A stretch of DNA of 64,000 bases from positions 658-64,657 of the forward strand of contig JAZOOF010000049.1 of NCBI GenBank assembly GCA_045654885.1. The letters are read 5' to 3'. Under the pieces are notes generated by a model. That model saw nothing but the letters and a program-made list of their open reading frames with translations, made no database searches and was not told the DNA's origin. This DNA comes from Bacteroidaceae bacterium. Its GTDB lineage: Bacteria > Bacteroidota > Bacteroidia > Bacteroidales > Bacteroidaceae. The position numbers were made by a program, and so were the translations under genes. Shown here one piece after another: positions 25,839 through 46,475 of the stretch (its first letter is position 1; each line of letters opens with the position of its first letter).

Positions 25839-26522
25839 TTACATGACTTCATACAATATCCCACTGTAGTTGTCGGTGGAGAGTTTCTCGCACATGAACT
25901 TTATCACGTCAACAACATCCTCCAGCGTTTTGTCGTCTTGCAGACGTGCTGCGAGTATCTGTGGCGCCATGGCCTTGTACACACCATCGGTGCAAAGGAA
26001 TATCCTGTCGCCTTTCTCCACCTCAATGCGGGTGATGTCCGGGATTGCAACTTCCGGGTCCATTGAGAAGAAACAGCGTGTAACAATCTCTGTTCCCGGA
26101 CGGGAGTGGTCGGTTGTCTGGTGTACAACCTCGCCATTGCGCAACAGGTAGCATCTGCTGTCGCCGCAATGTGCTATGGTTACCGTGTTATTCTCCACAC
26201 TTGCCATTACGAGTGTTGTTCCCATCTCAATTGGACGTACCATCCTTGAACGGTAGTAAAGAGCTTCGCTTGCATGTGCAAATGCTGTCAATACCTTTTC
26301 CTCGCAATCATTCGTGCCGGGGGTATCTTCCCAGAAATTGCATACAGCATTGCACACAGTCTCGGCTGCTGCATCGCCCATAGCGTGGCCTCCCATGCCG
26401 TCGCACACAACCAGCAGGCAGCGGTTCTCTTCGGGCATTTCAACAACACGGCAAATATCCTGGTTTGCTATTCTCTTGCCGGTCTCGGAGAATACCGTAT
26501 ACATGTATTTCTGTTTTTCCAT
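25839..26522 (-). CDS. PP2C family serine/threonine protein phosphatase
   Basis: 227 aa. NQDICRV...LLVVCDGMGGHAMGDAAA...LCTDGV are PP2C metal-binding motifs. Confidence 0.85.
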   Translation of the reverse strand: MEKQKYMYTVFSETGKRIANQDICRVVEMPEENRCLLVVCDGMGGHAMGDAAAETVCNAVCNFWEDTPGTNDCEEKVLTAFAHASEALYYRSRMVRPIEMGTTLVMASVENNTVTIAHCGDSRCYLLRNGEVVHQTTDHSRPGTEIVTRCFFSMDPEVAIPDITRIEVEKGDRIFLCTDGVYKAMAPQILAARLQDDKTLEDVVDVIKFMCEKLSTDNYSGILYEVM

Positions 26523-26567
26523 GTCTTGTTTATACGTTTTTGTACAGTTATTTCTTTTTAAGAGTAA

Positions 26568-26607
26568 AACAAACGGCAGAATCTATCATCCGATTCTGTC
26601 GTTTGTT
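26568..26607 (-). terminator. Terminator-like hairpin between the RyR gene and the PP2C gene
   Basis: aacaaacggcagaatc-tatcatcc-gattctgtcgtttgtt (one G-T pair), followed by a T-rich tract on the minus strand. Confidence 0.55.
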
Positions 26608-26625
26608 CAGGAGTTTGTATGCAAA

Positions 26626-26916
26626 TTACTCTTTCGTAATCTTGAATCCCAGTTTTGTTATCAGTTTCAGGGTTCCAAAAGCTGTGTCGCGGTCATATGC
26701 CTTCTCCACCTCGGGCAGCTCCTCGTAGGGCACCAGGCAAGGGTGGGTCTTCAAGGTGTCATTGCGCTCCTCGCCATAGGCCCAGCCCTGCTCCATTCGG
26801 CTCTGCGCCCACACGTCGTGTACGTTTTTTGCAATCTTTTCTACAAGCTCATCCAACTCTGCCGGCAACTGTACGTCATTTGTGTTCACCGGCTGCGGTA
26901 CATAATTCTTTTTCAT
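26626..26916 (-). CDS. Stand-alone RyR (ryanodine-receptor repeat) domain protein
   Basis: 96 aa. LVEKIAKNVHDVWAQSRMEQGWAYGEERNDTLKTHPCLVPYEELPEVEKAYDRDTA matches the RyR-domain consensus (HE.W...R...GW.YG......K.HP.LVPY.EL...EK..DR). Confidence 0.85.
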   Translation of the reverse strand: MKKNYVPQPVNTNDVQLPAELDELVEKIAKNVHDVWAQSRMEQGWAYGEERNDTLKTHPCLVPYEELPEVEKAYDRDTAFGTLKLITKLGFKITKE

Positions 26917-26987
26917 TGTTCCTTGTGTTTTGGGTTTTTATATTATAGAACAATTTCTGATGCGGAATCTGTCAGCGTATATAAAAT

Positions 26988-28766
26988 TTATATTTGTTCT
27001 GTCAAGTCAAGGAAACCAACAATGTCGGTGTCTGTTATCTGCTTTTTGTGTTCAACAAACTTTCCGTCTGTCAATCTCAAGAATGTGATATCGCCTTTGT
27101 CGTTGGTTGTGTATGCCGTTTTCAGTTCTTCAAGATTTTTTATTTCATTACCATCATATCCAATGATTATATCGCCTTTCTTAAATATTGCATGTGTTTC
27201 ATCACCGTATATTGCATGTATTGTCACTCCTGAATATTCACGTTTGCCTTCTGCAATTTCAATAAAAAACTGCTTTGCCGAAGCTACATAATCTTTGCTT
27301 TCGGGATAACACTCTTCAAATGTAGTGAGCATAGACTTTATGTTGCTATAAGCTGTCATGGGGTTGATTGACGCTTCCTTACCTGCATCGAGTTCTTTAA
27401 ATCCGTAATACACTAATGAAATATCGTTCAAGAATCCTCCCCAGTAACGGATTTTAAGCCATTTGAGCCCTTGCTCATCTGCAGCCTGTATAGTGCACAT
27501 TTTCTTTATTTCATCATAATCTTGCACGTTTGTGCTGTCATATTCCAAAAGCTTTTTCAGATAGACATTGTTGAGAGAATCCAGTTTTATTTCTGACTTG
27601 TACAGTTCATCTTCGGCTTTTTTGTTGTCTTCATTCATTTCAGATACATAACCCGATAATTGTTCAAACTCCTGTTTAATTAAAATCTCATATTCCGACT
27701 CTTTTGCTCCCAAAGCTGTTTTTGGCATATTGACAAATTTTGAACGGAGTTCATTGCTTTCCTCCAGGACTGATTCCGGCAACTTGCTTATGATTTGTAA
27801 ATATGAGTAATATAGAATGTTTCCTAAATGTGTTAATTCTTTGAAACTCATATCAATTAGTTTCAATTCGGATGGAAAAAGATTGTTGTCTTCGGTTTCA
27901 GTGGTCAGTTCTGTGATTAGCTCTATTGTTTCATTGATGAACATATACATTGTTGACAAATGCTCATTGACGGAATGTGATTCAAATTCATTTATACCAT
28001 ACAATGAAAGAAGGAATTTTTGCCAAGCTGTGTATTTTACACTTGCAATACTGTTACTCTTATAATATTCAATATTGCTTTTGATAACATCTATTTGAGA
28101 AAACAAATCATCCTTATTGCTGTTCGATTTATATTCATCCATAGCTAAGGCAAGTTTCTTGTTGTCATCTATCAGAAAGTCTGCTATACCGGCGTATAGT
28201 GTCTGGTGTTGTGCGAACTCTTTGCATAACGGTTTTGCTATTGAACGGAAAACGAAGAAGAGTGAAAGAAGTATTGCGGCGATGGATAGCGTGGAGAGAA
28301 TGAACCATTTAGCAAAAATCCTCTGTTTGGTATGTCTTGTACTGCTCAAATAGCTTTCAAGGCGTTTCATAGACATATCGAAATACTCAATTGAACCGGC
28401 TGCAACAGCCTGGTAGTTGCGTAGCTCTTCCATACCTTGCGGCATTGGATTCGGCCATACAAAGCCGCTGAGCATTACCGGTATAATGTTTTTTTTGTGA
28501 CTCATTGCGCACAACACCTCTTTGCGCACCCAGTCTTCTTCATTGCTACACCGTTCGAGAGCATCAGTGGGTAATACAATAACAAAGTCACGACATCCTT
28601 CTATTATATTGAACAATTGTTCATTGAATGGTCCCGAGCGCATAGATTCGAGGTCAAAGAATACTCTGTATCCGGCCGATTTCAAGCGTGTCGCTATCAG
28701 GTTTGCTGTTTCGTAAGAACTGCGGCGGTAGCTTATAAAAATATCATAATTATGTTTCATCGTCAT
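26988..28766 (-). CDS. TIR domain - single TM - long helical region - PDZ-like domain protein
   Basis: The N-terminus YDIFISYRRS...FFD...FVIVLP...WVRKEV is a TIR fold with the conserved Glu. A TM helix follows (WFILSTLSIAAILLSLFFVF), then about 330 aa of helical sequence and a C-terminal PDZ-like module GVTIHAIYGDETHAIFKKGDIIIGYDGNEIKNLEEL. Confidence 0.85.
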   Translation of the reverse strand: MTMKHNYDIFISYRRSSYETANLIATRLKSAGYRVFFDLESMRSGPFNEQLFNIIEGCRDFVIVLPTDALERCSNEEDWVRKEVLCAMSHKKNIIPVMLSGFVWPNPMPQGMEELRNYQAVAAGSIEYFDMSMKRLESYLSSTRHTKQRIFAKWFILSTLSIAAILLSLFFVFRSIAKPLCKEFAQHQTLYAGIADFLIDDNKKLALAMDEYKSNSNKDDLFSQIDVIKSNIEYYKSNSIASVKYTAWQKFLLSLYGINEFESHSVNEHLSTMYMFINETIELITELTTETEDNNLFPSELKLIDMSFKELTHLGNILYYSYLQIISKLPESVLEESNELRSKFVNMPKTALGAKESEYEILIKQEFEQLSGYVSEMNEDNKKAEDELYKSEIKLDSLNNVYLKKLLEYDSTNVQDYDEIKKMCTIQAADEQGLKWLKIRYWGGFLNDISLVYYGFKELDAGKEASINPMTAYSNIKSMLTTFEECYPESKDYVASAKQFFIEIAEGKREYSGVTIHAIYGDETHAIFKKGDIIIGYDGNEIKNLEELKTAYTTNDKGDITFLRLTDGKFVEHKKQITDTDIVGFLDLTEQI

Positions 28767-28805: not shown

Positions 28806-29534
28806 TTACAGTTTCGTCATCTCTATGTTTTCGGTACTATCCCTTAAAATAAGTTCCTTGATTCTGCTACCTCCATACTTCCACATCTTGTGGCAGAATA
28901 CCAGAAATACAATTGTTAGAATGCCACTGATGGCAGGTGTTACGTCTGTTATGAACAATATTGAATCGTAGAGTCCATGAACGATGATAGGTGCAACCAA
29001 TATAAGAATCTTATTCTTCAATGGTGTCTTGGGATAGAATTTGGCAAGTGAATAATAGTATCCCATAAGTATGCCGAAACAGAAATGTCCGGGCACGGCG
29101 AATATGGCGCGGGTGATACCTACCGACAGATATGATTCTACATTAGAGAACAAGTACATGATATTTTCTAATGCAGCGAAACCAAGCGAAATGCATACTG
29201 CATATACAATACCGTCCATCTTTTCGTCAAAGAATCTGTTTTTGCGCAGCACCAACCATAATAGGAAAAACTTGGCAATCTCCTCGGGTATCGCTGCACC
29301 AAAGAATGTCGCACTCACACTTCCAAAGATGCTTGTCGCCTCAGTAGGATATACACCAATCAATCCTAATGGTATTGACATACAAAAGGACAATGGAATA
29401 GACAATATTCCATAAAAGAATGCTTTTAACAATTGTCCTGTTGGCTCTGGTGATTTCTTGTCCTTTTGGTATATATAATACACAAGGATAGCTATGGGTA
29501 GTAGCGCGGTTAGAAAAATTATTATTGGTTCCAT
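28806..29534 (-). CDS. PrsW family intramembrane metalloprotease
   Basis: 242 aa, multi-TM, with the signature motifs IPEEIAKFF, GFAALEN and VHGLYDS. Confidence 0.85.
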   Translation of the reverse strand: MEPIIIFLTALLPIAILVYYIYQKDKKSPEPTGQLLKAFFYGILSIPLSFCMSIPLGLIGVYPTEATSIFGSVSATFFGAAIPEEIAKFFLLWLVLRKNRFFDEKMDGIVYAVCISLGFAALENIMYLFSNVESYLSVGITRAIFAVPGHFCFGILMGYYYSLAKFYPKTPLKNKILILVAPIIVHGLYDSILFITDVTPAISGILTIVFLVFCHKMWKYGGSRIKELILRDSTENIEMTKL

Positions 29535-29548
29535 TTTTTGTTAAAGGT

Positions 29549-31051
29549 CTATTTCTTAAAAATAGATTTAAGTCGTTGAAAGAATGTTTTATGTACTTCG
29601 GAATCCTGTTCTTGTGAGTTATCAATCACGACGTTTTTACTCTCTCTATTTGATTCATAGTTAAAGGAACCTTCATTCTGTTTTACTTGTTTAGATTGCA
29701 AGAATCTGTTTTTATTATTCTTAAGATTAAGAAAATATAACAAGTTGTCCTTGTAATTTTCAGTTGTAAAACATTGTTTATCTCTAAGCCAAGCAGGAAT
29801 ACTATGGATATTGATTTCAGATGATAGAATATTAACAATTTTTGCGTTTGGCTTATGTCCTGTATTTATGTCATTTACAAAAGTGTGCCACTCTGCAGCA
29901 ACATATGGTGTCTCAATATAATCAATACGAGTCGCAAAAACGATCATATTGTCACATACATTTATCACTTCTCCTATAAGAGCTGTATATTGGTCAATTC
30001 CTATTTCTTTAATAGACTTATCTGCAAGAAAAGGCCTAAAACCATTAGAATCCAAGAATTTATATAAATCATATGCTAATGCATAATCTTGGCTCTTACA
30101 TGAAATGAATATATCGAAACCTCGCTCGTTGATTTCGTTGCGTATTTTTTCTATCACCCTAGAAATACGAGCTTTACGTGTTCTTACCAAATCCCATATC
30201 TGCAATATGGCGCTATAATAATTCTTGGTATCTTGTATCAATGTTATTAAACTCTCTCCGTGGTGGGAGTTAAGCGAAATATCTAAACGTTCTATTGATT
30301 TTTCTCTAATAAAGTGCAGTTCTTCATTTGGAAAAAGTACACTTTCATCTTCACCTTGAACCACAAGTGTAGGATTTTCTTCTAATTTTACCTTGAAGTA
30401 TTGTATATCTCTATCTCGTTCATTTGCTTTCTCGTCCATTCCTAGTTGTAACTCCTTTGCTTTTTTCCTTTCCAATCTTTGTAATGCAATATTCCAAGAT
30501 TTACGTTTTTCATTTCTTCTATCAACATCTTGTTGTAAAATAACATTTCTACGTCTTTCACTATTATATTGAGAAACAATAGCATTGTTGTCTTCCAAAA
30601 ATGAATGCAAAATATTTAGGGGTGTGAGAAAATCCTCAAGATCATTATAGTTATATATAGTAAAAACTTGCGGTTTTATTTTTTTATCCCGACTAATAAG
30701 AATGAATGCTGGGAGACTTGAACGAAGCAGCCCAAAATGATTACAGATATCATCGGCTGTTTGCATTGTTACACTAACACCCTCACCATATAGAGGGTGC
30801 CAATCAGATAAATTTTTCACCCATCTCGTCAGGTTTTCGTTCATTTTATCATATGAATTATTGATGAAATAAAAAAAACATATTCTATTCCCTGTTATGC
30901 GGTCTATTCTCCATGCATTATCAACTATTTCACGGAGGATACTTTTGTCATTATCATCGAAACTACTTACAAAAAGTAGCATAAGGTCATATTGATATTG
31001 ATAATAGAACCTATCAAGGACTTGATCAAATTTTAGGGGTGTTACGAACAT
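29549..31051 (-). CDS. TIR domain protein with an unknown N-terminal domain and a coiled coil
   Basis: Residues ~311-430 (nt 29762-30121) read FDIFISCKSQDYA...FLADKS...MIVFAT...YVAAEWHTF, a TIR fold with a Glu. Residues 160-225 are charged coiled coil. I do not recognise the N-terminal 150 aa. Confidence 0.8.
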   Translation of the reverse strand: MFVTPLKFDQVLDRFYYQYQYDLMLLFVSSFDDNDKSILREIVDNAWRIDRITGNRICFFYFINNSYDKMNENLTRWVKNLSDWHPLYGEGVSVTMQTADDICNHFGLLRSSLPAFILISRDKKIKPQVFTIYNYNDLEDFLTPLNILHSFLEDNNAIVSQYNSERRRNVILQQDVDRRNEKRKSWNIALQRLERKKAKELQLGMDEKANERDRDIQYFKVKLEENPTLVVQGEDESVLFPNEELHFIREKSIERLDISLNSHHGESLITLIQDTKNYYSAILQIWDLVRTRKARISRVIEKIRNEINERGFDIFISCKSQDYALAYDLYKFLDSNGFRPFLADKSIKEIGIDQYTALIGEVINVCDNMIVFATRIDYIETPYVAAEWHTFVNDINTGHKPNAKIVNILSSEINIHSIPAWLRDKQCFTTENYKDNLLYFLNLKNNKNRFLQSKQVKQNEGSFNYESNRESKNVVIDNSQEQDSEVHKTFFQRLKSIFKK

Positions 31052-31262: not shown

Positions 31263-31724
31263 CTATTTAAAAACCATTCCTCTAATCTCCTCCCCAATAG
31301 CCTCTTCAAGGAAATCACATCTTGCGCAAAGGAGCAGCTCGTGGGTATACTCCTCTAGCATGGCTTTATAGTATGTGACATCTTTGTGATTGGTGTGTGT
31401 TATTCTTTCCCAAAGTGTCTGCTCCACTGCATCTTTATATGCATTGTCCACCGTTTCTCTGTCATCATCGGTCATTAGCTGGCGCAGCTTAGGGTGATTG
31501 AGAATATCTTCTAGCGAGCGTGGGTCATTGGGCGCTATCTCTTGCCAAAGTGCCCGCAGGAACTCTTTGTATTCACATTCTATTCTCAATGGTAGTTCTT
31601 TGTCATATTCTCCTATGCTTTCGGGCTGCTCATGGGCTGCTTCATTGACAATGTTTCCAAAGTATTTGTCAAGTATCTCCCTCTCTTTCTTTATGCACAG
31701 TTCTTTGATTTGCGTTTTGTCCAT
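31263..31724 (-). CDS. Hypothetical protein (helical, acidic), island-specific
   Basis: 153 aa from MDKTQIKELC (ATG 31722-31724). The longer ORF would overlap the upstream gene. No recognisable family. Confidence 0.5.
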   Translation of the reverse strand: MDKTQIKELCIKKEREILDKYFGNIVNEAAHEQPESIGEYDKELPLRIECEYKEFLRALWQEIAPNDPRSLEDILNHPKLRQLMTDDDRETVDNAYKDAVEQTLWERITHTNHKDVTYYKAMLEEYTHELLLCARCDFLEEAIGEEIRGMVFK

Positions 31725-31789
31725 GATATTTTTTATGCTACAAGAGTGTATGAATTGTTTGATGAGATGAAAGTTGAATATAGCTTGTT

Positions 31790-32926
31790 TTATTCGTACA
31801 ATGACCAGTCGATGTCTATCTTGTGTCCACACTTATCACAGAACACCTGTTTCTTGTAGATGATTGCATTGCACTTGGGGCAGTGGAACTCCTGCTGTGA
31901 GTTACGGATGCGCTCTCTTAGTATTCTGTAAAGTTCAGTGTCTTCGCGCTTAATCAAATCATAACCCAATTTCTTCAGCAGCTTGATTGTGTCCATGGCC
32001 ATGTTGCGGTCGAAATCCTTTTCTTTCTCAGGCAGTTGTGAATAGGGTACCATGCAAGGGTTCTCTTTCTTGGCATCGTTACGCTCCGGTCCATAGCTCC
32101 AACCTTGTGCAAGGCGTTCAGCAGCCCATACTTCGTGGGCATTCTCCGCAATTGCTTCACGCAGTTCGTTCAGGTCCTCTGCCAGTTGTACATCTGTCAG
32201 GTCAATAGGTCTTGGAGTGTATGTTTTCATATCTTTTGTGTTTATGGTTACTAAATAGTTTTTTGAATCGTTCCATGCATCGACGAATTGTTCGATGGGG
32301 TATGTGTCCTCGCTGTTTGGTGAGTTGGGGTCATGTATTATCACGCAATTGTTGACTGTGTCACAGGAGAGGACAACCACTGTGTGGTCGGGAACCTCAC
32401 CAATCAATATGTCCTCGATAATCTCTTCGGTTCTATTCCCCAGTAACTCTCCGCCATCAACGGCAACTATTACGCTATCATTTGCATTGAGAGCATTTGC
32501 TATATCGTCAAAAGAGGCATTATATTGGCGGGCAACAGCAAGGCCTTTTGCCTCTAAGTGGCGTCCTACATTATGTAGCGCAGTTCCGGTTTCTTTCTGC
32601 CAACCATTTTTAATTGCATTTTGCAGCAGTTGTTCTTCGTCAAACTCTATATTAAACTTGCGGAGTATATATTTCTCACACTCAAGGCTGCATAAATTCT
32701 CGCTGTTGCATGTGGCTGCAATAGCCGTCATTGGGATAGGCTCGCATTCATTGGGCAGTTTTCCCAATTCGGCGTCTACTAATTGAGAAATACGTAGCAA
32801 TTCTCTTAATTCAGCATCGTGGGGTAGTGTTTCGAGTATCTCTTTGCACTCCTGTGCGCTCGCATTTCCCTCAAGGAATGCTGCCAACACCTCTGCCGGG
32901 ATGTTATTTACCGATTTCTTCTTCAT
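31790..32926 (-). CDS. Anti-sigma-like N-terminus fused to a C39/papain-like peptidase domain, a RyR domain and a C-terminal zinc ribbon (no TM segment)
   Basis: Residues are numbered from the long ORF start at 32950. The N-terminus LAAFLEGNASAQECKEILETL is anti-sigma-like. Residues ~75-235 carry Cys (NLCSLEC), His (PDHTVVV) and Asp (IHDPN) in papain/C39 order. Residues ~255-335 are a RyR domain (AENAHEVWAAERLAQGWSYGPERNDAKKENPCMVPYSQLPEKEKDFDR). The ribbon is CPKC...CDKC. The gene overlaps the sigma gene by 23 nt. Confidence 0.75.
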   Translation of the reverse strand: MKKKSVNNIPAEVLAAFLEGNASAQECKEILETLPHDAELRELLRISQLVDAELGKLPNECEPIPMTAIAATCNSENLCSLECEKYILRKFNIEFDEEQLLQNAIKNGWQKETGTALHNVGRHLEAKGLAVARQYNASFDDIANALNANDSVIVAVDGGELLGNRTEEIIEDILIGEVPDHTVVVLSCDTVNNCVIIHDPNSPNSEDTYPIEQFVDAWNDSKNYLVTINTKDMKTYTPRPIDLTDVQLAEDLNELREAIAENAHEVWAAERLAQGWSYGPERNDAKKENPCMVPYSQLPEKEKDFDRNMAMDTIKLLKKLGYDLIKREDTELYRILRERIRNSQQEFHCPKCNAIIYKKQVFCDKCGHKIDIDWSLYE

Positions 32927-33473
32927 ACTTCCCAATCTCCTTAAGTGCAATTTCAGTCAAGGCTGCAATGGCACGTTTTTTTATGTTATACAAATTGTCT
33001 ACATTGGTCATTAGTTCCGCAGCCACAACCTTTGGCTCGGCTTCTTCCAGGACCAATCGTCTTATTACATGGACATAGCGCTTGTTCGGCATCATTGAAA
33101 ACAGGTGCTCTATATCCATTTTTGCATTAGTCGCCGCCTCATTGACGGTGTCTTCATGTATCTCATTCTCAAAAAGATTCACTTTGGGTTCCATATCTAT
33201 CATGTTATTGCGCTTTGCAATAAAGTAGCGAATAGCAATTACTTTCATCCACTGATAGATAGTGCTACGACCTTGGAACTGTCTTAAACGATATGCATCG
33301 TTTTCCATTAGGTGCAGATAGAATTCGTTTACAAATTCATCGTAGTCAACCTCATAGGAGAATACATTACGCATTATGCTCATGAAAAGCGGGCGGCAAC
33401 TCTTGAAAAAGAACTGCTGCGTCACTCGCTCGTCCCGAGCAATCAATGCTTCAATTATTTGTTGGTCGGTCAT
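32904..33473 (-). CDS. RNA polymerase sigma-70 family (ECF-type) factor
   Basis: 189 aa. Region 2 (DYDEFVNEFYLHLMEND...YQWMKVIAIRYF) and a region 4 HTH (RYVHVIRRLVLEEAEPKVVAAELMTNVDNLYNIKKRA). Confidence 0.8.
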   Translation of the reverse strand: MTDQQIIEALIARDERVTQQFFFKSCRPLFMSIMRNVFSYEVDYDEFVNEFYLHLMENDAYRLRQFQGRSTIYQWMKVIAIRYFIAKRNNMIDMEPKVNLFENEIHEDTVNEAATNAKMDIEHLFSMMPNKRYVHVIRRLVLEEAEPKVVAAELMTNVDNLYNIKKRAIAALTEIALKEIGKYEEEIGK

Positions 33474-33479
33474 TGTTTG

Positions 33480-36008
33480 TTACTCTTTAAGATATGATGT
33501 GTACGCTGTAGGCAACACTTTTATCAACGTTTCGTCCAGTTCCATTACGTTGCAATCAATTTCTTTCAATTTGCTGTTTGAACAGATATCAAGATGAGCA
33601 AAATTCTTTTTTAATCTATTTTTCTCCATAGCAGACGAATAAAGGTCGGTAATTTTTGCTTTCATCTGTTCGTCGTATGTTAAAGGACGGTAGCGCAGCA
33701 ACAATTGCTCTAAAACCCATCTGTTGTGTTCTACTTCTCCCAATTTTTTCATCATTGAACCTTCAAATCCTTTTGACGGGTCTGTTCCAAAACATCTGAA
33801 TTTACTGAACATTGAATAGATGTTATACTGATTTGACCACATCTTTGCAGACTTTGGTTTATCGTTGGTTTTATACATATTGGCTCTGGGATATTTAAAA
33901 GATTCCATTACTTCAGAATATTTTATTTTTCCACGGTTTTCTTTTATCCACTCGTCACATCCTTTTTTGATTTTTTCTTTATTCTTGTCAGAACTTATGC
34001 TATAATAACCATTGGAGATTTTATCATAATCTTCGTCTGTCAATTTTTTATAGCGCTTTTTCATCTGCTCCCAAACAAATTGGTCATATGCATCTCCAAC
34101 TTTTTTGGAAATACTTTCTGCCATCTCTGTTAAAGAAAGATTATAGCATTTTTTTGCCATTCCAAAAGCTTTGAGTTTTTCTGAATATCTGCCTTTATAG
34201 TTTATTTGATTGAGCAGTTCGTCGTCTAATCTTTGATAAACCAATACTTGTTGTGTAGAAGTTTCTTCATATATACAACTCGGTAAATATGTAGCAGCTG
34301 CTATTGCACGACTATTTTCTGGCAGACATATTGCAATTGTCATTTTTGCATTCATGTTTCTGCTTGCATCTTCCAGATATTTTTGTATAGCCGGATTTTC
34401 AACAGAACCATTTATGAATTCCCACTCAATGTCAAGGAAGTCACCTCCCAGGTAGTCAAAACCAACCGGGATGTGGATGTCCTGTGGATTCCATTCCAAG
34501 ACTCCGTTTTCATTGATGTTGCCATATCGCCAATGTGAAAGCGCAAACAGTTCCTTGAAACGTCCTATGAAGAAGTTCTTTTCCTCTGCTGCATTCTTGT
34601 CTATGAAGGTGATTTTTGTACGTATCTGTTTATTCTCATAATTTGGATAGTGGCATAAATGTGCTGCTTCTATTGCCATAGCCACTCCCATGCGTGACAT
34701 TCCTACAATTACAAGATGTACAAAATTATTGTCATCTGGTTTTATGCCATCAAATCCTTCAAGAGGCAAATACTTGCCATTTCCTTTAAGTTCTTGGCAT
34801 ACAAGAACATTTTGAGCCCACATCTCATAGTAATTGAAGGGCAGGAACTTTATTTTATCAACATTGATATCTGTTACTTGAAGAACATTGAATGAGGTCT
34901 GGTATTCGAACATAACGCGACAAACCAGTTCTTCCCCTTTCTTGAATGCTTGGGAATTTTTGATTTCGTCATTGATTAATCTCAAACATTTCATGTTCAT
35001 TGTGTCATGATACGACTCAATGTCATCGGTTCTTGTATCCTCGCCAATGACAAAAACTTCTATTGCATTCTCAATGTGTAAATATGCAATGTCATCTTTA
35101 GAAGTGCGGTTGCCATAATATATGATTATATGTTTCTGTTGCTCCTCTGTCAGTCCCGAGAAGAGTTCACGCCTGAAGCTTTCTACATCGCGTAGGGTTT
35201 GGATAACTATGTAAGGCAACTTTTTGACCTTGTTATTGACGAACAGCTCGCTGACGATTCCAATGGCAACATCGTTTCCACCAATGACTATGTAGAATTT
35301 CTTTTTTGCTCTACGTAGAAAACGTTTGTATTTGACCTCTCCTTTTAGCCATTGCTCCCTGCGTCGGTCAATCCAACTGATGAGCATTGAAATCAATAGG
35401 CCGTTAAGGAGAAGAAAACCCAATGTGGCAATAATGCTGGAAATGATACGCCCTCTGTGCGTTGTTGTCATATGTTGGTTCCCCGGGTCGATAAAATGGT
35501 AGTATACAGTCCACAACAGTGATGGGTTTTCCTGTTTTTCCTTTATAGAGTCCGGCAAGTTTGATTGCTTGAGTATGGTGCAACTCTTTCCTTCTTCATT
35601 GCATGTTATGATACCTAATGTGTCTATTCCTGAATACTCCTCTTTATATAGATTATCTTCGTAGACCAATTCTTTGCTTGATAGGCATTGATAATCTTCT
35701 TTGGCACAATGTTTGTCGGTAATGGCGATGTTGACAAGATGAACGATTGCTGTGATTGTTACAGGTATGAACAATACAAATTTTATGACCTTGCCCAAGA
35801 AGTTTCCTCTTGTCAAAAGCCAATCACGTTTTATGGGTTTGCAGAAAACAATAAAGTACCGTATGCAGTATATGAGACCAATAGCACCGACAATGATTTC
35901 AAAACACTGTTTCTGCCAAAAGATACCAACTACATACGTAATTATACATATGGCGAGTAATGCGATTTCTAAAAATTTCCAAATAATATTCTTTATTGTA
36001 TTGCGCAT
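33480..36008 (-). CDS. Multi-TM protein with a CASTOR/POLLUX-like pore motif, two Rossmann/RCK-like modules and a divergent RyR-like C-terminus (putative ligand-gated cation channel)
   Basis: 3 N-terminal TM helices, a Cys-containing loop, then LLWTVYYHFIDPGNQHM followed by a TM helix (a pore-helix/filter/inner-helix arrangement). FYIVIGGNDVAIG and HLVIVGMSRMGVA are Rossmann-type beta-alpha starts. The C-terminal GEVEHNRWVLEQLLLRY...AHLDI...L.E resembles the RyR/TrkA-N-RyR architecture. Confidence 0.65.
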   Translation of the reverse strand: MRNTIKNIIWKFLEIALLAICIITYVVGIFWQKQCFEIIVGAIGLIYCIRYFIVFCKPIKRDWLLTRGNFLGKVIKFVLFIPVTITAIVHLVNIAITDKHCAKEDYQCLSSKELVYEDNLYKEEYSGIDTLGIITCNEEGKSCTILKQSNLPDSIKEKQENPSLLWTVYYHFIDPGNQHMTTTHRGRIISSIIATLGFLLLNGLLISMLISWIDRRREQWLKGEVKYKRFLRRAKKKFYIVIGGNDVAIGIVSELFVNNKVKKLPYIVIQTLRDVESFRRELFSGLTEEQQKHIIIYYGNRTSKDDIAYLHIENAIEVFVIGEDTRTDDIESYHDTMNMKCLRLINDEIKNSQAFKKGEELVCRVMFEYQTSFNVLQVTDINVDKIKFLPFNYYEMWAQNVLVCQELKGNGKYLPLEGFDGIKPDDNNFVHLVIVGMSRMGVAMAIEAAHLCHYPNYENKQIRTKITFIDKNAAEEKNFFIGRFKELFALSHWRYGNINENGVLEWNPQDIHIPVGFDYLGGDFLDIEWEFINGSVENPAIQKYLEDASRNMNAKMTIAICLPENSRAIAAATYLPSCIYEETSTQQVLVYQRLDDELLNQINYKGRYSEKLKAFGMAKKCYNLSLTEMAESISKKVGDAYDQFVWEQMKKRYKKLTDEDYDKISNGYYSISSDKNKEKIKKGCDEWIKENRGKIKYSEVMESFKYPRANMYKTNDKPKSAKMWSNQYNIYSMFSKFRCFGTDPSKGFEGSMMKKLGEVEHNRWVLEQLLLRYRPLTYDEQMKAKITDLYSSAMEKNRLKKNFAHLDICSNSKLKEIDCNVMELDETLIKVLPTAYTSYLKE

Positions 36009-39202: not shown

Positions 39203-41899
39203 ATGGGGAGAGTTTGTCTGTGTCTTGCTGTAATGTTTTTCATCTGTAGTGCTCAAAAAGTTGATGCGCAAGTACAGAGTATCCGTGAGAAACAAGATTC
39301 CGTTTCGGTAGTAAAATCATTGGAGCATATCAAGCCTGAGAAAATCAAGAAGGGCCCGATGAACAATGCTCTTGATGTGTTGAGCGGTCAGTCCGCAGGT
39401 GTAAATGTTACCACAAATGGTAGCGATAGGCTCGCGATGCTGAACAGTATCCGTGTGCGAGGTACCACCTCCATTATGGGCGGAAACGACCCGTTGGTAA
39501 TTATAGACGGAGTGACATCCGACATCTCAACTCTCTCGACCATATATCCTGCCGATATCGAGAGTTTCACAATTTTGAAGAATGCCACAGAAACCGCTAT
39601 GTATGGTTCCCGTGGTGCTTCGGGTGTCATCGAAATTAAGACTAAGAAAAGTGCAGGACAGGGGTTCCAGATCTCTTACGATGGTAACTACGGACTCGAG
39701 TCTATGTACAAACATTTGCAGATGCTCAGTGCCCCGGAATATATTGCCACTGCGAAGAGTTTGGGCTTAGAGTACAATGATGGTGGTTACAACACCAACT
39801 TCCACGATGTAATAACCCGTACTGGCTATATTCATCAACATCATCTTGCATTCAGTGGTGCTTCGGAGAACTCCAACTACCGTGCTTCATTTGGCTTTAT
39901 GGATCATAAGACCATCGTCAAGGTGAACGACTATAGGAATCTTGTGGTAAAACTCGATGCAACGCAAAAGGCATTTGATGGCCGCCTGATAGGTGATTTT
40001 GGTGTATATGGCTACTCCTCAACAGTACACGACATCTTTGATACCCGAATGTTGTTTTACTCTGCAGCGGCGCAGAATCCGACATATCCCACGGGAACAG
40101 ATGTAAATGGCAATTGGGTAAAGAACTCGGCTGCATCACACATCAACCACCCCGGAGCACTCCTTTATGAAAAAAACGACTCTAAGGAACAGAATTTCAA
40201 TATGCATCTGGGGTTGAAATTCAATATCCTTGAAAATTTGATATTATCTGCTTTCGGCTCTTATTCCTTCTCTTCTACCGGAAATGCGCAGTTTTGTCCA
40301 ACCTGGGTTTGGGCACAGGGAAATGTATATCGTGGTGAGTTCAAGGGTGAGGATTACTTTACCAATATGTCTCTCTCGTATAACAATACATGGGGAGATT
40401 CCCGCTTTGAGGCAGTTGTGGGCGCAGAATATCTTAAACAGGTCAGGACCGGTTTCTGGGTGCATGCCAAAGGAATAACCACAAATGATTTCTCCTATAA
40501 TAACATCGGAGCAACATCATCGCGTCCTTTCGGTGGTACAGGCAGTAGCTATGAAGACCCGTCACTTGCTTCAATAATGGGTAGTGTCACATATAGTTAC
40601 AAGAACAGATACGCCATTTCGGCAACCCTACGTGGTGATGGCTCTTCGATGGTTAGTGACAACCACACATTCGGCTTTTTCCCTTCTGCATCGTTCAGTT
40701 GGGATATGAAGCGTGAGAAATTCCTTACGGATGTTGATTTTGTTACGATGTTGAAGCTTCGCACCGGATATGGTCAGTCGGGTAATCTTGGCGGCATCAG
40801 ATCTTACACAACACTGAACACTGTCAGGGAAAATGGCATAGTCTCCATCAATGGAACCCCGACTGTTACGATGGGTAGCATAAAAAACACAAACCCTGAC
40901 CTTAAATGGGAAACGCGTTCAACTTTTAACATAGGCTTTGACTTGGGATTGTGGAACAACCGATTGATGTTGACCTCGGAGTACTATTATTCAAAGACCA
41001 CCGACATGCTGTATGACTATTATGTTCCAGTACCAAACTTTGCTTTTGACAAGTTGATGGCGAACGTAGGCTCTATGTCGAACCAAGGTGTAGAACTGGG
41101 AATTTCGGTAGTACCCATTCAAAGAAAGGATATGGAGATGAACATTAACTTCAATATGTCCTATCAAAAGAATAAGTTGCTGTCACTCAGCGGCGAGTAT
41201 AATGGAATGCAGATGACGGCGTCCGACATAACACCTATTGGCTCGCTCTATGGCGCCGGCCAGAATGGAGGTAATAACAATGTGGTATATCAGATAGTCG
41301 GGCAACCATTGGGAGTATTCTATCTGCCTCACTGCACCGGGCTTAAAAAGAACGGATTGGGTGGTTATAGCTATGAGATAGAGGATTTGGATGGTAAGGA
41401 CGGAATAGATCTCAGCGATGGAGGTGACAGATACATAGCTGGGCAGGCAACACCCAAAATAACCATAGGCTCGAATATCAGTTTCCGCTATAAGTTCTTC
41501 GACATAGCTATGCAGATTAACGGTGCTTTCGGTCACAAGATATTCAATGGTACAGGATTGGCTTATACCAACATGTCAATATTCCCTGATTATAATGTAT
41601 TGAAGGATGCTCCCGAGAAGAATATTATTGACCAAAATGTTTCGGACTATTGGCTGGAAAATGGTGACTATGTAAATATTGAACAACTTACCATAGGATT
41701 CAACATTCCTATGAAATCAAAGACTGCCAACTCTTTACGCTTGTCGGCAAGTATAAGTAACCTGGCTACAATAACTGCCTATACCGGAATTACGCCAATG
41801 ATAAACAGTTATGTAGTTAGCGGGACATTAGGTATTGACGATAAACGCACCTATCCTTTGTATCGCACCTATTCATTAGGTCTCAGTGTTCAATTCTAA
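39203..41899 (+). CDS. SusC/RagA family TonB-linked outer-membrane protein
   Basis: 898 aa. Plug motifs (IRVRGTTSI..GNDPLVIIDGV, YGSRGASGVIEIKTKK) and a C-terminal ...LGLSVQF. Confidence 0.9.
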   Translation: MGRVCLCLAVMFFICSAQKVDAQVQSIREKQDSVSVVKSLEHIKPEKIKKGPMNNALDVLSGQSAGVNVTTNGSDRLAMLNSIRVRGTTSIMGGNDPLVIIDGVTSDISTLSTIYPADIESFTILKNATETAMYGSRGASGVIEIKTKKSAGQGFQISYDGNYGLESMYKHLQMLSAPEYIATAKSLGLEYNDGGYNTNFHDVITRTGYIHQHHLAFSGASENSNYRASFGFMDHKTIVKVNDYRNLVVKLDATQKAFDGRLIGDFGVYGYSSTVHDIFDTRMLFYSAAAQNPTYPTGTDVNGNWVKNSAASHINHPGALLYEKNDSKEQNFNMHLGLKFNILENLILSAFGSYSFSSTGNAQFCPTWVWAQGNVYRGEFKGEDYFTNMSLSYNNTWGDSRFEAVVGAEYLKQVRTGFWVHAKGITTNDFSYNNIGATSSRPFGGTGSSYEDPSLASIMGSVTYSYKNRYAISATLRGDGSSMVSDNHTFGFFPSASFSWDMKREKFLTDVDFVTMLKLRTGYGQSGNLGGIRSYTTLNTVRENGIVSINGTPTVTMGSIKNTNPDLKWETRSTFNIGFDLGLWNNRLMLTSEYYYSKTTDMLYDYYVPVPNFAFDKLMANVGSMSNQGVELGISVVPIQRKDMEMNINFNMSYQKNKLLSLSGEYNGMQMTASDITPIGSLYGAGQNGGNNNVVYQIVGQPLGVFYLPHCTGLKKNGLGGYSYEIEDLDGKDGIDLSDGGDRYIAGQATPKITIGSNISFRYKFFDIAMQINGAFGHKIFNGTGLAYTNMSIFPDYNVLKDAPEKNIIDQNVSDYWLENGDYVNIEQLTIGFNIPMKSKTANSLRLSASISNLATITAYTGITPMINSYVVSGTLGIDDKRTYPLYRTYSLGLSVQF

Positions 41900-41911: not shown

Positions 41912-43531
41912 ATGAGAAAATGTATCAACATATTTATGGTTATTCTTACAGCAGTCATGACAGCTTCTTGTCTTGAAGAGGAACATAGAGACCAACTGTA
42001 TGAAGATGAAATCTACAATAGTGCCGACAATATATATATAAATGCAGTTGCGGTGCTCTACAACCATATCGGTGGTAGTGACGATAGCGAGGGCTTGCAA
42101 GGAACATGTCGAGGTATATATGATTATAACACGCTGACCACCGACGAGGCTATGATCCCTATCAGGGGTGGCGACTGGTATGATGGCGGCTTGTGGGAGA
42201 ATATGTATCAGCACAAATGGAGCCCCAACGACCAACCATTGTACAATACCTGGAAATATCTCTACAAAGTAGTTGTGCTGTCGAATAAGTCTTTGCATAT
42301 GATTGACAAGTATAGTTATTACTTGACCGAAGAGCAGAGGGTCGCATATGAAGCTGAGGTGCGAGCCATAAGAGCTCTTTTCTACTACTATATAATGGAT
42401 ATGTATGGCAGAGTGCCTATTGTAACGTCATATGATCAGCCGCAGGATGGGGTCGTGCAAAGCGAGCGTAGCGAAGTGTTCCGCTTTATCGTTGATGAGT
42501 TGCAAGAGGTCGTAGGCCAATTACCCGACGAACGTAGCAATAAGATGGGAAACTATTACGGTCGTATAACTAAGCCTGTCGTTTATTTTCTATTGGCGAA
42601 ATTAGCACTGAATGTCGAGATATATTGTGACGACAACTGGACCGATGGTGTATCACAAAACGGTAAGGAGATATTTTTTACCGTCGATGGCGTGGTGCTC
42701 AATGCTTGGCAGACTTGCATAAGGTATTGCGACAAGCTCGCCGAGGCTGGATATCAGTTGGAGGGTGATTATAGCTGCAATTTTACCGTTCACAATGAGA
42801 ACTCCAATGAGAATATATTCACTATTCCTTTGGATAAGAACTTCTATGCTGCACAATTCTGGTATCTCTTCCGCTCACGACACTATAATCATGGCGGTGC
42901 ATTGGGCGGCTCATCCGAGAATGGCACGAGTGCCAATATCTCTACAGTTCTTGCCTATGGCTATGGAACTGAGCATGTGGATGCTCGCTTTGAAAAGAAT
43001 TTCTATGCAGGCGCTGTTGTGGTCGATGGAAAGGCCGTTATGATGGATAACGGAAAACCATTGGAGTATCATCCATTGGAGTTAAGATTGAATCTTACAG
43101 GAAGTCCCTATGTAAAGACAGCCGGTGCTCGAATGGCGAAATATGAGGTTGACCGCACAGCGCATTCCGATGGTCGCCAACCAGATAACGACATCGTGCT
43201 CTTCCGCTATGCCGATGCACTATTGATGAAGGCAGAGGCAAAAGTGCGCAATGGCGAAGATGGCTCGTTTGAGTTGAACGAGGTACGCAGCCGTGTCGGT
43301 ATGCCATACCGCGAGGCAACGCTTGAAAACATATTGGAAGAACGTTTGTTGGAATTGGTATGGGAAGGTTGGAGACGACAGGATATGGTGCGATTTGGTG
43401 TATACCACAAGTCATACGACCAGCGCGTTCAGTTGCCCGATGAAGATAACGGATATACAACCGTGTTTCCAATCCCACAGAAGAGCATTGACCTTAACCC
43501 GAGATTGAAGCAGAACGTTGGATATAAATGA
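41912..43531 (+). CDS. RagB/SusD family nutrient-uptake outer-membrane lipoprotein
   Basis: Lipobox LTAVMTASC. TPR-like SusD motifs (RALFYYYIMDMYG, RYADALLMKAEA, ERLLELVWEGWRRQDMVRFG). Confidence 0.9.
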   Translation: MRKCINIFMVILTAVMTASCLEEEHRDQLYEDEIYNSADNIYINAVAVLYNHIGGSDDSEGLQGTCRGIYDYNTLTTDEAMIPIRGGDWYDGGLWENMYQHKWSPNDQPLYNTWKYLYKVVVLSNKSLHMIDKYSYYLTEEQRVAYEAEVRAIRALFYYYIMDMYGRVPIVTSYDQPQDGVVQSERSEVFRFIVDELQEVVGQLPDERSNKMGNYYGRITKPVVYFLLAKLALNVEIYCDDNWTDGVSQNGKEIFFTVDGVVLNAWQTCIRYCDKLAEAGYQLEGDYSCNFTVHNENSNENIFTIPLDKNFYAAQFWYLFRSRHYNHGGALGGSSENGTSANISTVLAYGYGTEHVDARFEKNFYAGAVVVDGKAVMMDNGKPLEYHPLELRLNLTGSPYVKTAGARMAKYEVDRTAHSDGRQPDNDIVLFRYADALLMKAEAKVRNGEDGSFELNEVRSRVGMPYREATLENILEERLLELVWEGWRRQDMVRFGVYHKSYDQRVQLPDEDNGYTTVFPIPQKSIDLNPRLKQNVGYK

Positions 43532-43542
43532 ATACATGACTT

Positions 43543-44145
43543 ATGAGTGTACAGTTTGAAATGGCAAAGCGGATTATTGAAGAAACCTGCCCTAATCGCA
43601 AGCTGAAATTGGAGAATATACGCCTTTTTGCTACCATAATCCAACCACATAAATATCAGAAAGGTGATATGATACTAAACGAAGGTGATGTGTGCAATTG
43701 CATCTATTATATAGAAAAAGGTTTTATAAGGCAGCACTATGTCAAGCACGATAAGGATGTCACTGAGCATCTGGCTTGTGAGAAAGATGTAGTTTTGTGT
43801 ATTGATAGTTATTTCAACTGTGAGCCATCCCACCTTAAAATGGAGGCTTTAGAGCAGAGTGTGCTTTGGGAGATACCTCGTGACATAATGGAGGAGCTTT
43901 CCGACACTAATGGTGACATTGCCTATCTGTACCGGCGTTTTTTTGAGAACTCTTTGATGCTGTCTCAGTTGAAGGCCGATATATTACGATTCGAATCTGC
44001 CAACGAACGTTATGCAAGACTGTCGCAACATTTTCCCGAAATAATTAAAAGAGCTCCGCTCACACTCATTGCCTCATATTTGCAGATGACACTCGAGACA
44101 CTGAGTCGTGTGCGTGCATCCATTACAAATACCAAAAACAAATAG
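43543..44145 (+). CDS. Crp/Fnr family transcriptional regulator (cNMP-binding domain plus HTH)
   Basis: 200 aa. GD...EGDV...YYIEKGFIR is a cNMP-binding beta-roll, with a C-terminal HTH (IASYLQMTLETLSRVR). Confidence 0.85.
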   Translation: MSVQFEMAKRIIEETCPNRKLKLENIRLFATIIQPHKYQKGDMILNEGDVCNCIYYIEKGFIRQHYVKHDKDVTEHLACEKDVVLCIDSYFNCEPSHLKMEALEQSVLWEIPRDIMEELSDTNGDIAYLYRRFFENSLMLSQLKADILRFESANERYARLSQHFPEIIKRAPLTLIASYLQMTLETLSRVRASITNTKNK

Positions 44146-45784: not shown

Positions 45785-46440
45785 AATCGTTTTTTTGAGA
45801 TCCCTCGTCGCTCCGCTTTGTCGGGATGACAAGTGCGTTTGTTTTAGATCCTTCGACTACGCTCAGGATGACAAGTACGCGTTTAGGATAAGTATATCAT
45901 ACTGTCATTCTGAACGAATGTGAAGAATCTGTGTGCGCTTTTTTTAGATCCTTCGACTGCGCTCAGGATGACAAGTACGCGTTTAGGATAAGTATATCAT
46001 ACTGTCATTCTGAACGAATGTGAAGAATCTGTGTGCGCTTTTTTAGATCCTTCGACTGCGCTCAGGATGACAAGTACGCGTTTAGGATAAGTATATCATA
46101 CTGTCATTCTGAACTAATGTGAAGAATCTGTGTGCGCTTGTTTTAGATCCTTCGACTGCGCTCAGGATGACAAGTACGCGTTTAGGATGAGTACATCATA
46201 CTGTCATTCTGAACTAATGTGAAGAATCTGTGTGCGCTTTTTTTAGTTCCTTCGACTGCGCTCAGGATGACAAGTACGCGTTTAGGATGAGTACATCATA
46301 TGTCATTATGAACGAATGTGAAGAATCTGTGTGCGCTTTTTTAGATCCTTCGACTGCGCTCAGGATGACAAGTACGCGTTTAGGATGAGTACATCATGCT
46401 GTCGTTCTGAACGAATGTGAAGAATCTGTGTGCACTTGTT
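45785..46440. repeat. Tandem array of about 6.5 copies of a 98-100-bp imperfect-palindrome (REP-like) unit
   Basis: Unit starts (AGATCC/AGTTCC) are at 45846, 45946, 46045, 46145, 46245 and 46343, with a degenerate half unit at about 45790. The unit is AGATCCTTCGACTGCGCTCAGGATGACAAGTACGCGTTTAGGATAAGTATATCATACTGTCATTCTGAACGAATGTGAAGAATCTGTGTGCGCTTTTTTT, and its two arms are mutually complementary. Confidence 0.9.
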
Positions 46441-46475
46441 TTCCGTTTTCCGTTTTAACCTTTCACCTTTTCTTA

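Follow-up and report, generated by a model that had tools for sequence, protein, structure and literature searches.

What is the 842-amino-acid membrane protein encoded on the minus strand at positions 33480 to 36008 of a 64,000-nucleotide stretch of Bacteroidaceae bacterium DNA (assembly GCA_045654885.1, contig JAZOOF010000049.1, positions 658 to 64,657; here called the window), and how is it connected with the TIR-domain genes that lie beside it? A preliminary description of this gene had proposed a pore signature like that of the plant channels CASTOR/POLLUX/DMI1, two RCK-like modules, and a tail resembling the ryanodine receptor (RyR) domain. On the basis of our analyses, the protein very probably has this architecture: a pore with a CASTOR-like filter, a tandem RCK module, and an RyR-type tail. 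The occurrence of a CASTOR-like pore, RCK domains, and a tail of a nucleotide-binding type in an operon with TIR genes suggests that the protein may be a channel opened by immune signals of the cyclic ADP-ribose (cADPR) type. On the fuller proposal, a Thoeris-like system in which a TIR-made ADP-ribose signal would gate the RCK channel via its RyR domain, we are evenly divided. The segments of the gene, which starts with ATG, are as follows.

33480..36008, minus strand: whole open reading frame (ORF), 842 amino acids, with a pore module of four transmembrane (TM) helices, RCK1, RCK2, a helical linker, and an RyR-like tail
35841..35975, minus strand: TM1 (residues 12 to 30) and TM2 (residues 34 to 56), accessory N-terminal helices that are poorly conserved, both being absent from many relatives
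35718..35801, minus strand: TM3, the outer pore helix (residues 70 to 97), from hydropathy and the AlphaFold2 model
35529..35717, minus strand: variable extracytoplasmic turret loop (residues 98 to 160), with four Cys residues in this protein that are not conserved
35469..35528, minus strand: pore helix and filter (residues 161 to 180), ...PSLLWTVYYHFIDPGNQHM, in which D174, G176, and N177 stand opposite the D, G, and N of ADSGNH, the filter of CASTOR
35367..35459, minus strand: TM4, the inner helix (residues 184 to 214), with conserved G197 and G203, followed by a cytoplasmic basic stretch, RRREQW...KKK
34809..35300, minus strand: RCK1 (residues 237 to 400), with YIVIGGND as beta1, from Pfam Slo-like_RCK, Foldseek, and hhalign to CASTOR and MthK RCK1
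34149..34727, minus strand: RCK2 (residues 428 to 620), with a Rossmann-type fingerprint, G436-M-S-R-M-G441, and D470 ending beta2
33864..34148, minus strand: variable helical linker (residues 621 to 715), from the model and column conservation
33483..33863, minus strand: divergent RyR domain of the R12 type (Repeat12; residues 716 to 842), from a profile-profile match and the positions of ligand residues

The pore module carries the most conserved part of the protein. Residues 164 to 180 (LLWTVYYHFIDPGNQHM; nucleotides 35469 to 35519) stand where they had first been placed, ahead of a hydrophobic helix (IISSIIATLGFLLLNGLLISMLISWI), from which they are separated by a seven-residue linker, TTTHRGR. 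The filter sequence is I-D-P-G-N-Q-H. Mean column identity was 0.97 for residues 174 to 180, the best-conserved block of all, versus 0.30 for the preceding loop, and DPGNQ was present in 108 of 120 close homologues. Among 148 representatives (pairwise identity of ≤50%), D174, G176, and N177 were conserved in 89%, 96%, and 79%, respectively. The loop ahead of the pore had been described as Cys rich, which is true of this protein but not of the family: loop length in relatives ranges from 16 to 70 residues, and 28 of 56 relatives have no Cys there. The Cys-rich loop is therefore idiosyncratic to the query protein, and we rejected it as a conserved feature.

Topology and modeling agree on where the filter lies. 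Hydropathy identified four TM segments (residues 12 to 30, 38 to 56, 74 to 92, and 192 to 210), and the K/R-rich segments (residues 1 to 11, 55 to 73, and 215 to 250) place the loop from residue 98 to residue 188, which includes the DPGNQ segment, on the extracytoplasmic side between TM3 and TM4. An AlphaFold2 monomer model built from 56 homologues (predicted local distance difference test [pLDDT], 86.9; predicted template-modeling score [pTM], 0.81) has the order helix 70 to 100, a poorly ordered loop, a short helix at 164 to 173 in the position of a pore helix, a break at D174, helix 175 to 180, and helix 184 to 221. The extracytoplasmic location of the DPGNQ segment between two TM helices was thus upheld by both approaches. 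Hydropathy, charge bias, the model, and hhalign together gave an outer helix, a re-entrant pore helix, a filter, and an inner helix, with the loop facing outward. TVGYG, the K+ signature, does not occur in the filter, and Pfam Ion_trans_2 matched neither the query nor the 56 members scanned. The pore is predicted to be of the P-loop type with an acidic, non-K+ filter.

The likeness of this filter to that of the plant channels was evaluated by profile-profile comparison. An hhalign run of 119 diverse members against 110 plant CASTOR/POLLUX sequences yielded a probability of 96.5% (E value of 8e-10) over 184 colinear columns, which span the pore helix, the filter, and the inner helix and continue into RCK1, with D174, G176, and N177 on the D, G, and N of ADSGNH. 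The plant sequences, all including the pore, were retrieved with a CASTOR query that was near-identical to the DMI1 and CASTOR chains in the PDB. A comparison with the MthK pore gave a probability of 89%, with MthK represented by one sequence that was not independently validated. In CASTOR, the filter is AD265S(A)GNHA, the D265N mutation abolishes current, the channel is Ca2+ selective and is opened through Ca2+ at its RCK ring, and the last two of four TM helices form the pore (PMC6697748). The query protein shares with CASTOR/POLLUX/DMI1 the four TM helices with the last two as the pore, a non-TVGYG filter with D-x-G-N in register (IDPGNQH versus ADSGNHA), and tandem RCK domains immediately after the inner helix. 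It differs from them in the residues flanking D, G, and N, in being ranked by structure search closer to Slo1 and GsuK than to CASTOR, in its bacterial origin, and in having an additional C-terminal RyR-type domain and an operon with RyR and TIR genes.

Family models set a limit on this likeness. Castor_Poll_mid (PF06241) matched 0 of 56 members at E values of ≤1, which argues against membership in the CASTOR family. Because the Castor_Poll_mid, Ion_trans_2, and RyR models of Pfam were all unmatched, the relationships are remote ones and not family memberships. Of the Pfam families named in the preliminary description, TrkA_N alone was found, in 6 of 56 members; Slo-like_RCK matched 40 of the 56 scanned singly (best E value of 2.6e-7) and the query itself at a subthreshold E value of 0.029. 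No match to the query was found in the PADLOC and NCBIfam libraries, Pfam scans of the isolated tail and pore fragments gave none, and a PDB sequence-profile search with the full family alignment returned only noise. The CASTOR-like signature stands as to the register of D, G, and N but not as to the CASTOR family model or the flanking residues. In its working, the protein is predicted to resemble a CASTOR-type RCK channel, even though Pfam does not place it in the CASTOR family.

A channel-like fold was found by structure comparison. A Foldseek search of the PDB with the full model ranked human and Aplysia Slo1, GsuK, the LjCASTOR gating ring, and MthK at the top (E values of 1e-7 to 2e-5; probability of 1.0). 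The alignments to full-length GsuK and Slo1 chains covered 560 to 870 columns. For GsuK, a bacterial channel with two RCK domains, the TM-score normalized on the target was 0.53 over approximately 560 columns, and the E value for the LjCASTOR gating ring was 5.9e-6. CASTOR and DMI1 are represented in the PDB copy searched by gating rings only, with no full-length structure. In the model, residues 238 and 429 each open a beta-alpha-beta module, and the C-terminal third is helical. The first elements of the two modules (strand 238 to 242 with helix 246 to 258 and strand 429 to 435 with helix 439 to 451) account for the two Rossmann-type starts reported earlier. In RCK2, G436, G441, and D470 were conserved in 99%, 98%, and 96% of the 148 representatives, with the motif G436-M-S-(K/R)-M-G441, a pattern that is that of a putative dinucleotide-binding Rossmann site. 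With GsuK, MthK, and Slo (BK), the query family shares a pore of the P-loop type that leads into a cytoplasmic RCK gating module; GsuK resembles it further in that each subunit carries two RCK domains, and GsuK is a binder of ADP and NAD. Differences from this group are the lack of TVGYG in the query family, its two additional N-terminal TM helices, its RyR-type tail, and its island context.

The tail links the protein to RyR domains. Comparison of 202 tails with 97 RyR domains by hhalign gave a probability of 96.1% and an E value of 3.4e-9. An initial alignment with seven RyR sequences had been weak (P value of 0.003; probability of 9.8%), and only the larger sets brought the match to significance. 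As controls, five profiles of unrelated proteins of these loci were used, and all had P values of ≥0.19. When 1,348 ORFs of the collected loci were searched with a hidden Markov model (HMM) of the tail, all matches at E values of <1 beyond the channels themselves were RyR-domain ORFs. One of these, a 744-amino-acid neighbor of the channel gene in locus L008, matched both the tail HMM (E value of 4.6e-5) and the RyR HMM (9e-8), and this protein appears, from its profile matches, to be intermediate between the channel tail and canonical RyR domains.

The alignment of the tail pairs H761 and W764 with the RyR H-x-x-W motif, H805 with the "T-H-P" His, and D825 with the "Y-D-R" Asp. These residues were conserved in 98%, 100%, 98%, and 98% of the 148 representatives, respectively, and the RyR-type putative pocket is, as judged from these alignments, under strong purifying selection. 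The four residues align with H75, W78, H100, and D117 of the phage RyR-domain glycosidase RyDEP, which contact 3'cADPR/ADP-ribose (ADPR) (PMC13232231), and their equivalents in the phage sponge RyR Tad are H129/W132, H154, and D171. Phage RyR-domain proteins use the four RyDEP residues to bind or cleave 2'cADPR and 3'cADPR (PMC13232231, a 2026 preprint), and RyR Tad binds glycocyclic ADPR (gcADPR) and cADPR, with a Kd of 43 nM for 3'cADPR (10.64898/2026.06.04.730250). Both preprints deal with phage anti-defense proteins only. The tail and the neighboring RyR proteins have the same H-x-x-W...H...D ligand residues as the phage proteins. The latter are soluble anti-defense factors, whereas the RyR domains studied here are encoded by the host, as part of channel or peptidase fusions. 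An RyR domain joined to a cation pore of the tetrameric type is likewise seen in animal RyRs and in oomycete PKDRR proteins (PMC7399828), but the animal RyR/IP3R pore has six TM helices and the pore described here is of the RCK/CASTOR type.

The family to which the protein belongs is large. It comprises 1,619 cluster representatives (50% identity) at E values of ≤1e-3 and 645 at E values of ≤1e-30; a word-indexed search returned >1,165 proteins, none informatively named, and 360 family loci were detected among 185,579 species genomes scanned. It is a large unnamed family almost confined to gut Bacteroidales. Long relatives of 1,200 to 1,460 amino acids (P0213, P0218, P0226, P0238, and P0256) have DPGN(L/I) filters and a C-terminal FGE-sulfatase domain, and the same domain is fused to a TIR domain in locus L004 (18793 to 20106).

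The genes beside the channel gene may bear on its putative ligand. The channel gene is the first of a same-strand cluster in a low-G+C island (G+C content of 0.36 to 0.41 compared with approximately 0.49 in the flanks), and the genes that follow it are listed below.

32904..33473, minus strand: extracytoplasmic function (ECF) sigma-70-like protein, 189 amino acids (NCBIfam TIGR02937, E value of 6e-10), 6 nucleotides downstream of the channel gene
31790..32950, minus strand: C39-like cysteine peptidase with an RyR domain and a C-terminal zinc ribbon, 386 amino acids (Pfam RyR, 4.6e-34; Peptidase_C39_2, 4e-4; Zn_Ribbon_1, 1e-4)
31263..31832, minus strand: 189-amino-acid protein with no family match, the first gene of the variable cargo
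29549..31051, minus strand: TIR-domain protein, 500 amino acids (TIR at residues 314 to 411), catalytic Glu present
28806..29534, minus strand: PrsW-family intramembrane protease, from the family scan
26988..28766, minus strand: TIR-domain protein, 592 amino acids (TIR at residues 9 to 131; weak C-terminal PDZ), catalytic Glu present, with a TIR domain resembling Thoeris type III ThcB4
26626..26916, minus strand: stand-alone RyR-domain protein, 96 amino acids (local RyR HMM, E value of 1e-48)
25839..26522, minus strand: PP2C phosphatase at the edge of the low-G+C island, matching the PADLOC candidate defense family PDC-M21C (E value of 6e-10)

Packing is tight in the cassette of channel, sigma-like, and C39-RyR genes, with a gap of 6 nucleotides and an overlap of 47 nucleotides. 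The sigma-like protein is divergent and was missed by Pfam; its homologue in L009 scored 46.4 bits against TIGR02937, above the cutoff of 42.9, and in L001, L002, L004, and L009 the homologue always lies between the channel and C39-RyR genes. The 96-amino-acid RyR ORF is hidden beneath a longer, probably spurious plus-strand ORF (26314 to 27291), and the PP2C ORF overlaps a CreD ORF by 26 nucleotides. An Rfam scan of the region from 24 to 47 kb gave no match.

To see how constant these neighbors are, we compared 80 species-representative genome loci, all but two of them from Bacteroidales gut metagenome-assembled genomes (MAGs). HMM matches were counted downstream for 61 loci and upstream for 56, each having 5 kb or more of sequence on the side concerned, and the counts were compared using Fisher's test. 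These counts replaced a single-linkage clustering of neighbors by BLAST, which had merged the channels with RyR proteins and produced a spurious leucine-rich repeat cluster. Of the 61 downstream regions, 49 contained an RyR ORF and 30 a TIR ORF; of the 56 upstream regions, 4 contained an RyR ORF and 2 a TIR ORF (P values of 1.5e-16 for RyR and 1.2e-8 for TIR). Counted over the locus, an RyR partner was present in 52 of 61 loci and, anywhere in the locus, a sigma-like homologue in 23 and an M48 peptidase, an 85-amino-acid protein, and a 169-amino-acid zinc-ribbon protein in 17 to 18 each. For seven homologues, an RyR-domain gene lay just downstream of the channel gene in 9 of 9 metagenome or genome places. 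Of the 61 island TIR domains, 97% had the catalytic Glu. All of the partner RyR proteins kept H, W, and D where RyDEP has them, including the small ones (60/60), 47 of which also kept the second His, at the H100 position of RyDEP. Linkage of the channel gene to genes for RyR proteins is tight, and half of the species also show linkage to TIR proteins with an intact catalytic Glu.

Comparison with a near-identical strain separates the constant part of the island from its cargo. In locus L011, from a Bacteroidaceae MAG, the channel protein is 98% identical to the query, and the two DNAs (L011, 1 to 14219) share 96% identity from RecX to position 31790, which is the final base of the C39-RyR gene and the end of the similarity. 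Past this point, the cargo is unrelated: TIR, PrsW, and RyR genes in the window and genes for TIR, M48, 85-amino-acid, and 169-amino-acid proteins in L011. The last three constitute a recurrent trio downstream of the cassette (L001, L004, L011, and 15 other loci), namely, an M48 peptidase with a C-terminal zinc ribbon, the 85-amino-acid protein, and a 169-amino-acid membrane protein that also has a zinc ribbon; across these islands, four different proteins carry such a ribbon at the C terminus. In L003 (9324 to 11504) and L008 (12550 to 14784), the partner is a 726- to 744-amino-acid protein recognizable only by its C-terminal RyR domain (Pfam E value of 6.9e-6). Upstream of the cassette, a P-type cation ATPase of the Ca2+-pump type (Cation_ATPase_N/C) directly precedes the channel gene in L009 (6715 to 9495) and L010 (2081 to 4861), and an ATPase of the same type lies within 10 kb upstream in L005 (1 to 2294); this may be mere synteny or a hint of Ca2+ involvement.

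Two further differences between the window and L011 were noted. A block of approximately 6 kb in the window (38.8 to 45.0 kb), containing a SusC-like TonB receptor (39203 to 41899), a SusD-like protein (41912 to 43531), and a cyclic nucleotide monophosphate (cNMP)-binding regulator (43543 to 44145), is missing from the otherwise colinear L011 and resembles an ordinary insertion of the polysaccharide utilization locus (PUL) type. An intergenic tandem array (45833 to 46442; 100-bp unit, 6.1 copies, 95% match) apparently has fewer copies in L011.

How might the channel and its neighbors work together? As in Thoeris, TIR genes with a catalytic Glu share an operon with the putative effector, and the window has two of them. 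Four subunits would assemble into a pore with a ring of D174 side chains facing its lumen; the pore would be permeable to cations and possibly to Ca2+, as in CASTOR, rather than K+ selective, and the cytoplasmic RCK ring would hold it closed. Upon phage attack, the TIR proteins would convert NAD+ to a signal derived from ADP-ribose, either an isomer of cADPR or a related molecule. This signal would bind the H761/W764/H805/D825 pocket of the tail and perhaps also the GxSxxG...D Rossmann site of RCK2, and the channel would open, so that collapse of the membrane potential or Ca2+ entry would arrest the growth of the infected cell, the abortive-infection effect already suggested in the preliminary description. 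The stand-alone RyR proteins, most of which have the full H...D dyad of the RyDEP glycosidase, could buffer or destroy stray signal, and the peptidase-RyR protein with the sigma-like factor could provide a second output of the same ligand, transcriptional or proteolytic. We place the gating of the channel by a TIR-made signal at or slightly below an even chance.

Several observations weigh against this scheme. TIR genes are absent from 31 of 61 loci, including L009 and L010, which occupy the same chromosomal site, and the core components have no model in PADLOC v2. Pfam RyR (PF02026) was unmatched by the full protein, by tail fragments, and by 56 members, and the tail carries, relative to RyR domains, an insertion of 16 to 20 residues between its two halves; in both respects it differs from the phage proteins, and the RyR-like tail of the preliminary description is retained as a profile-level relationship, not as a match to the Pfam model. 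A model of the isolated tail was poor (pLDDT, 69) and had no Foldseek match in the PDB, so that the predicted four-helix Repeat12 fold of the tail is drawn from sequence profiles. C39-RyR proteins mostly have T or N at the H100 position. Furthermore, the large multidomain TIR proteins could be NAD+-depleting effectors, not makers of a signal, and a simple Thoeris scheme offers no explanation of what the sigma-like factor, C39 peptidase, PrsW/M48, and PP2C do.

A Thoeris system with a channel effector is already on record. Type X Thoeris, which consists of the TIR protein ThsB and the ion-channel effector ThsK, has been shown to defend against phage, with its signal unknown (10.64898/2025.12.03.692087); the terms "RyR" and "TrkA" do not occur in the text and supplements of that preprint, as far as these were accessible (one supplement in part). 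Using the TIR sequence, we found a candidate ThsK in a Vibrio sp. JCM 19052 locus (L007, 4369 to 4995). It has 208 amino acids, a weak Ion_trans_2 match, and the filter TLTYGGF, with no RCK or RyR domain. It sits between two ThsB_TIR genes (L007, 3740 to 5468) and beside conjugation genes (TraG-like, topoisomerase). We rejected the query family as a homologue of ThsK because the candidate did not match the family pore profile (P value of 0.65) and differs in architecture. The TIR proteins also differ, being short ThsB_TIR proteins in type X and TIR_2 proteins of 500 to 800 amino acids here.

If no TIR signal is involved, the protein could be a physiological cation channel regulated through its RCK and RyR domains, in which ordinary metabolites (ATP/ADP, NAD[H], or Ca2+) serve as gating ligands for ion homeostasis or Ca2+-type signaling and the TIR genes are neighbors only by way of the variable island. 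We regard this as unlikely, though not negligibly so. The best structural matches are RCK channels such as GsuK, a binder of ADP and NAD; the R12 domain of RyR is reported to be a site for ATP and drugs (cited in 10.64898/2026.06.04.730250); the TIR gene is missing from the 31 loci mentioned above; and the Ca2+-pump-type ATPase is found just upstream in L009 and L010 and within 10 kb upstream in L005. However, a same-strand TIR gene is 25-fold commoner immediately downstream than upstream (P value of 1.2e-8), the channel gene lies within a low-G+C island whose downstream cargo is swapped between near-identical strains, relatives carry FGE-sulfatase fusions, and the partner RyR proteins retain the catalytic dyad of a cADPR glycosidase.

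An improbable alternative is a signal transduction module with a mainly transcriptional output. Through ion flux or the binding of a ligand, the channel would control the C39-RyR-zinc-ribbon protein, which would free or activate the sigma-like factor and thereby turn on the variable downstream genes, with PrsW or M48 acting as in anti-sigma cleavage. PrsW is the site-1 protease of the anti-sigma factor RsiW in Bacillus subtilis, and PrsW or M48 genes recur in these loci. The tight channel/sigma-like/C39-RyR cassette, with 96% nucleotide identity where the cargo differs, and the TIGR02937 assignment of the sigma-like protein are also consistent with such a module. On the other hand, the sigma-like gene is present in just 23 of 61 loci versus 52 of 61 for RyR partners, no anti-sigma domain or partner was recognized, and the near-invariant pore signature would be left without an explanation. 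A nonconducting protein, with a TM part that merely anchors a cytoplasmic Rossmann/RyR nucleotide-binding scaffold, is highly improbable: the unmatched Ion_trans_2 model, the missing TVGYG, and the AlphaFold2 rendering of PGNQHM as a short helix instead of an extended filter fit it, but the block of pore helix, filter, and inner helix is the best-conserved part of the protein and aligns colinearly with the CASTOR and MthK pores, and the top Foldseek matches are the full-length GsuK and Slo1 chains.

Returning to the Thoeris-like reading, RCK-gated channels and TIR signaling with a channel effector are known, and the new element is the use of RyR domains on the host side. A filter of a non-K+ type otherwise known from plant symbiosis channels is now seen in a large family of gut Bacteroidales. 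The phage RyR preprints left the host-side role open, and the RyR-channel and RyR-peptidase fusions linked to TIR genes offer a concrete and testable host pathway. Only tentatively, and with more doubt than confidence, do we suggest that host RyR domains are receptors of a TIR pathway and that the protein is a bacterial cation channel, possibly for Ca2+, opened by a cADPR-type nucleotide, which would make this a new type of Thoeris; the stand-alone RyR proteins would then be built-in signal hydrolases or buffers. RyR domains would now be known on three unrelated types of cation pore (RyR, oomycete PKD, and RCK/CASTOR-like), which argues for a ligand sensor that can be transferred between channels. 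In animals, a direct action of cADPR on ryanodine receptors via Repeat12 is an old and long-debated open question. A bacterial channel of small size, with a single RyR domain in each subunit, would be a tractable model for that question. If the proposed gating is true, these Bacteroidales channels would be a prokaryotic counterpart, and perhaps an evolutionary source, of the Ca2+ release that runs from cADPR via the ryanodine receptor in animals.

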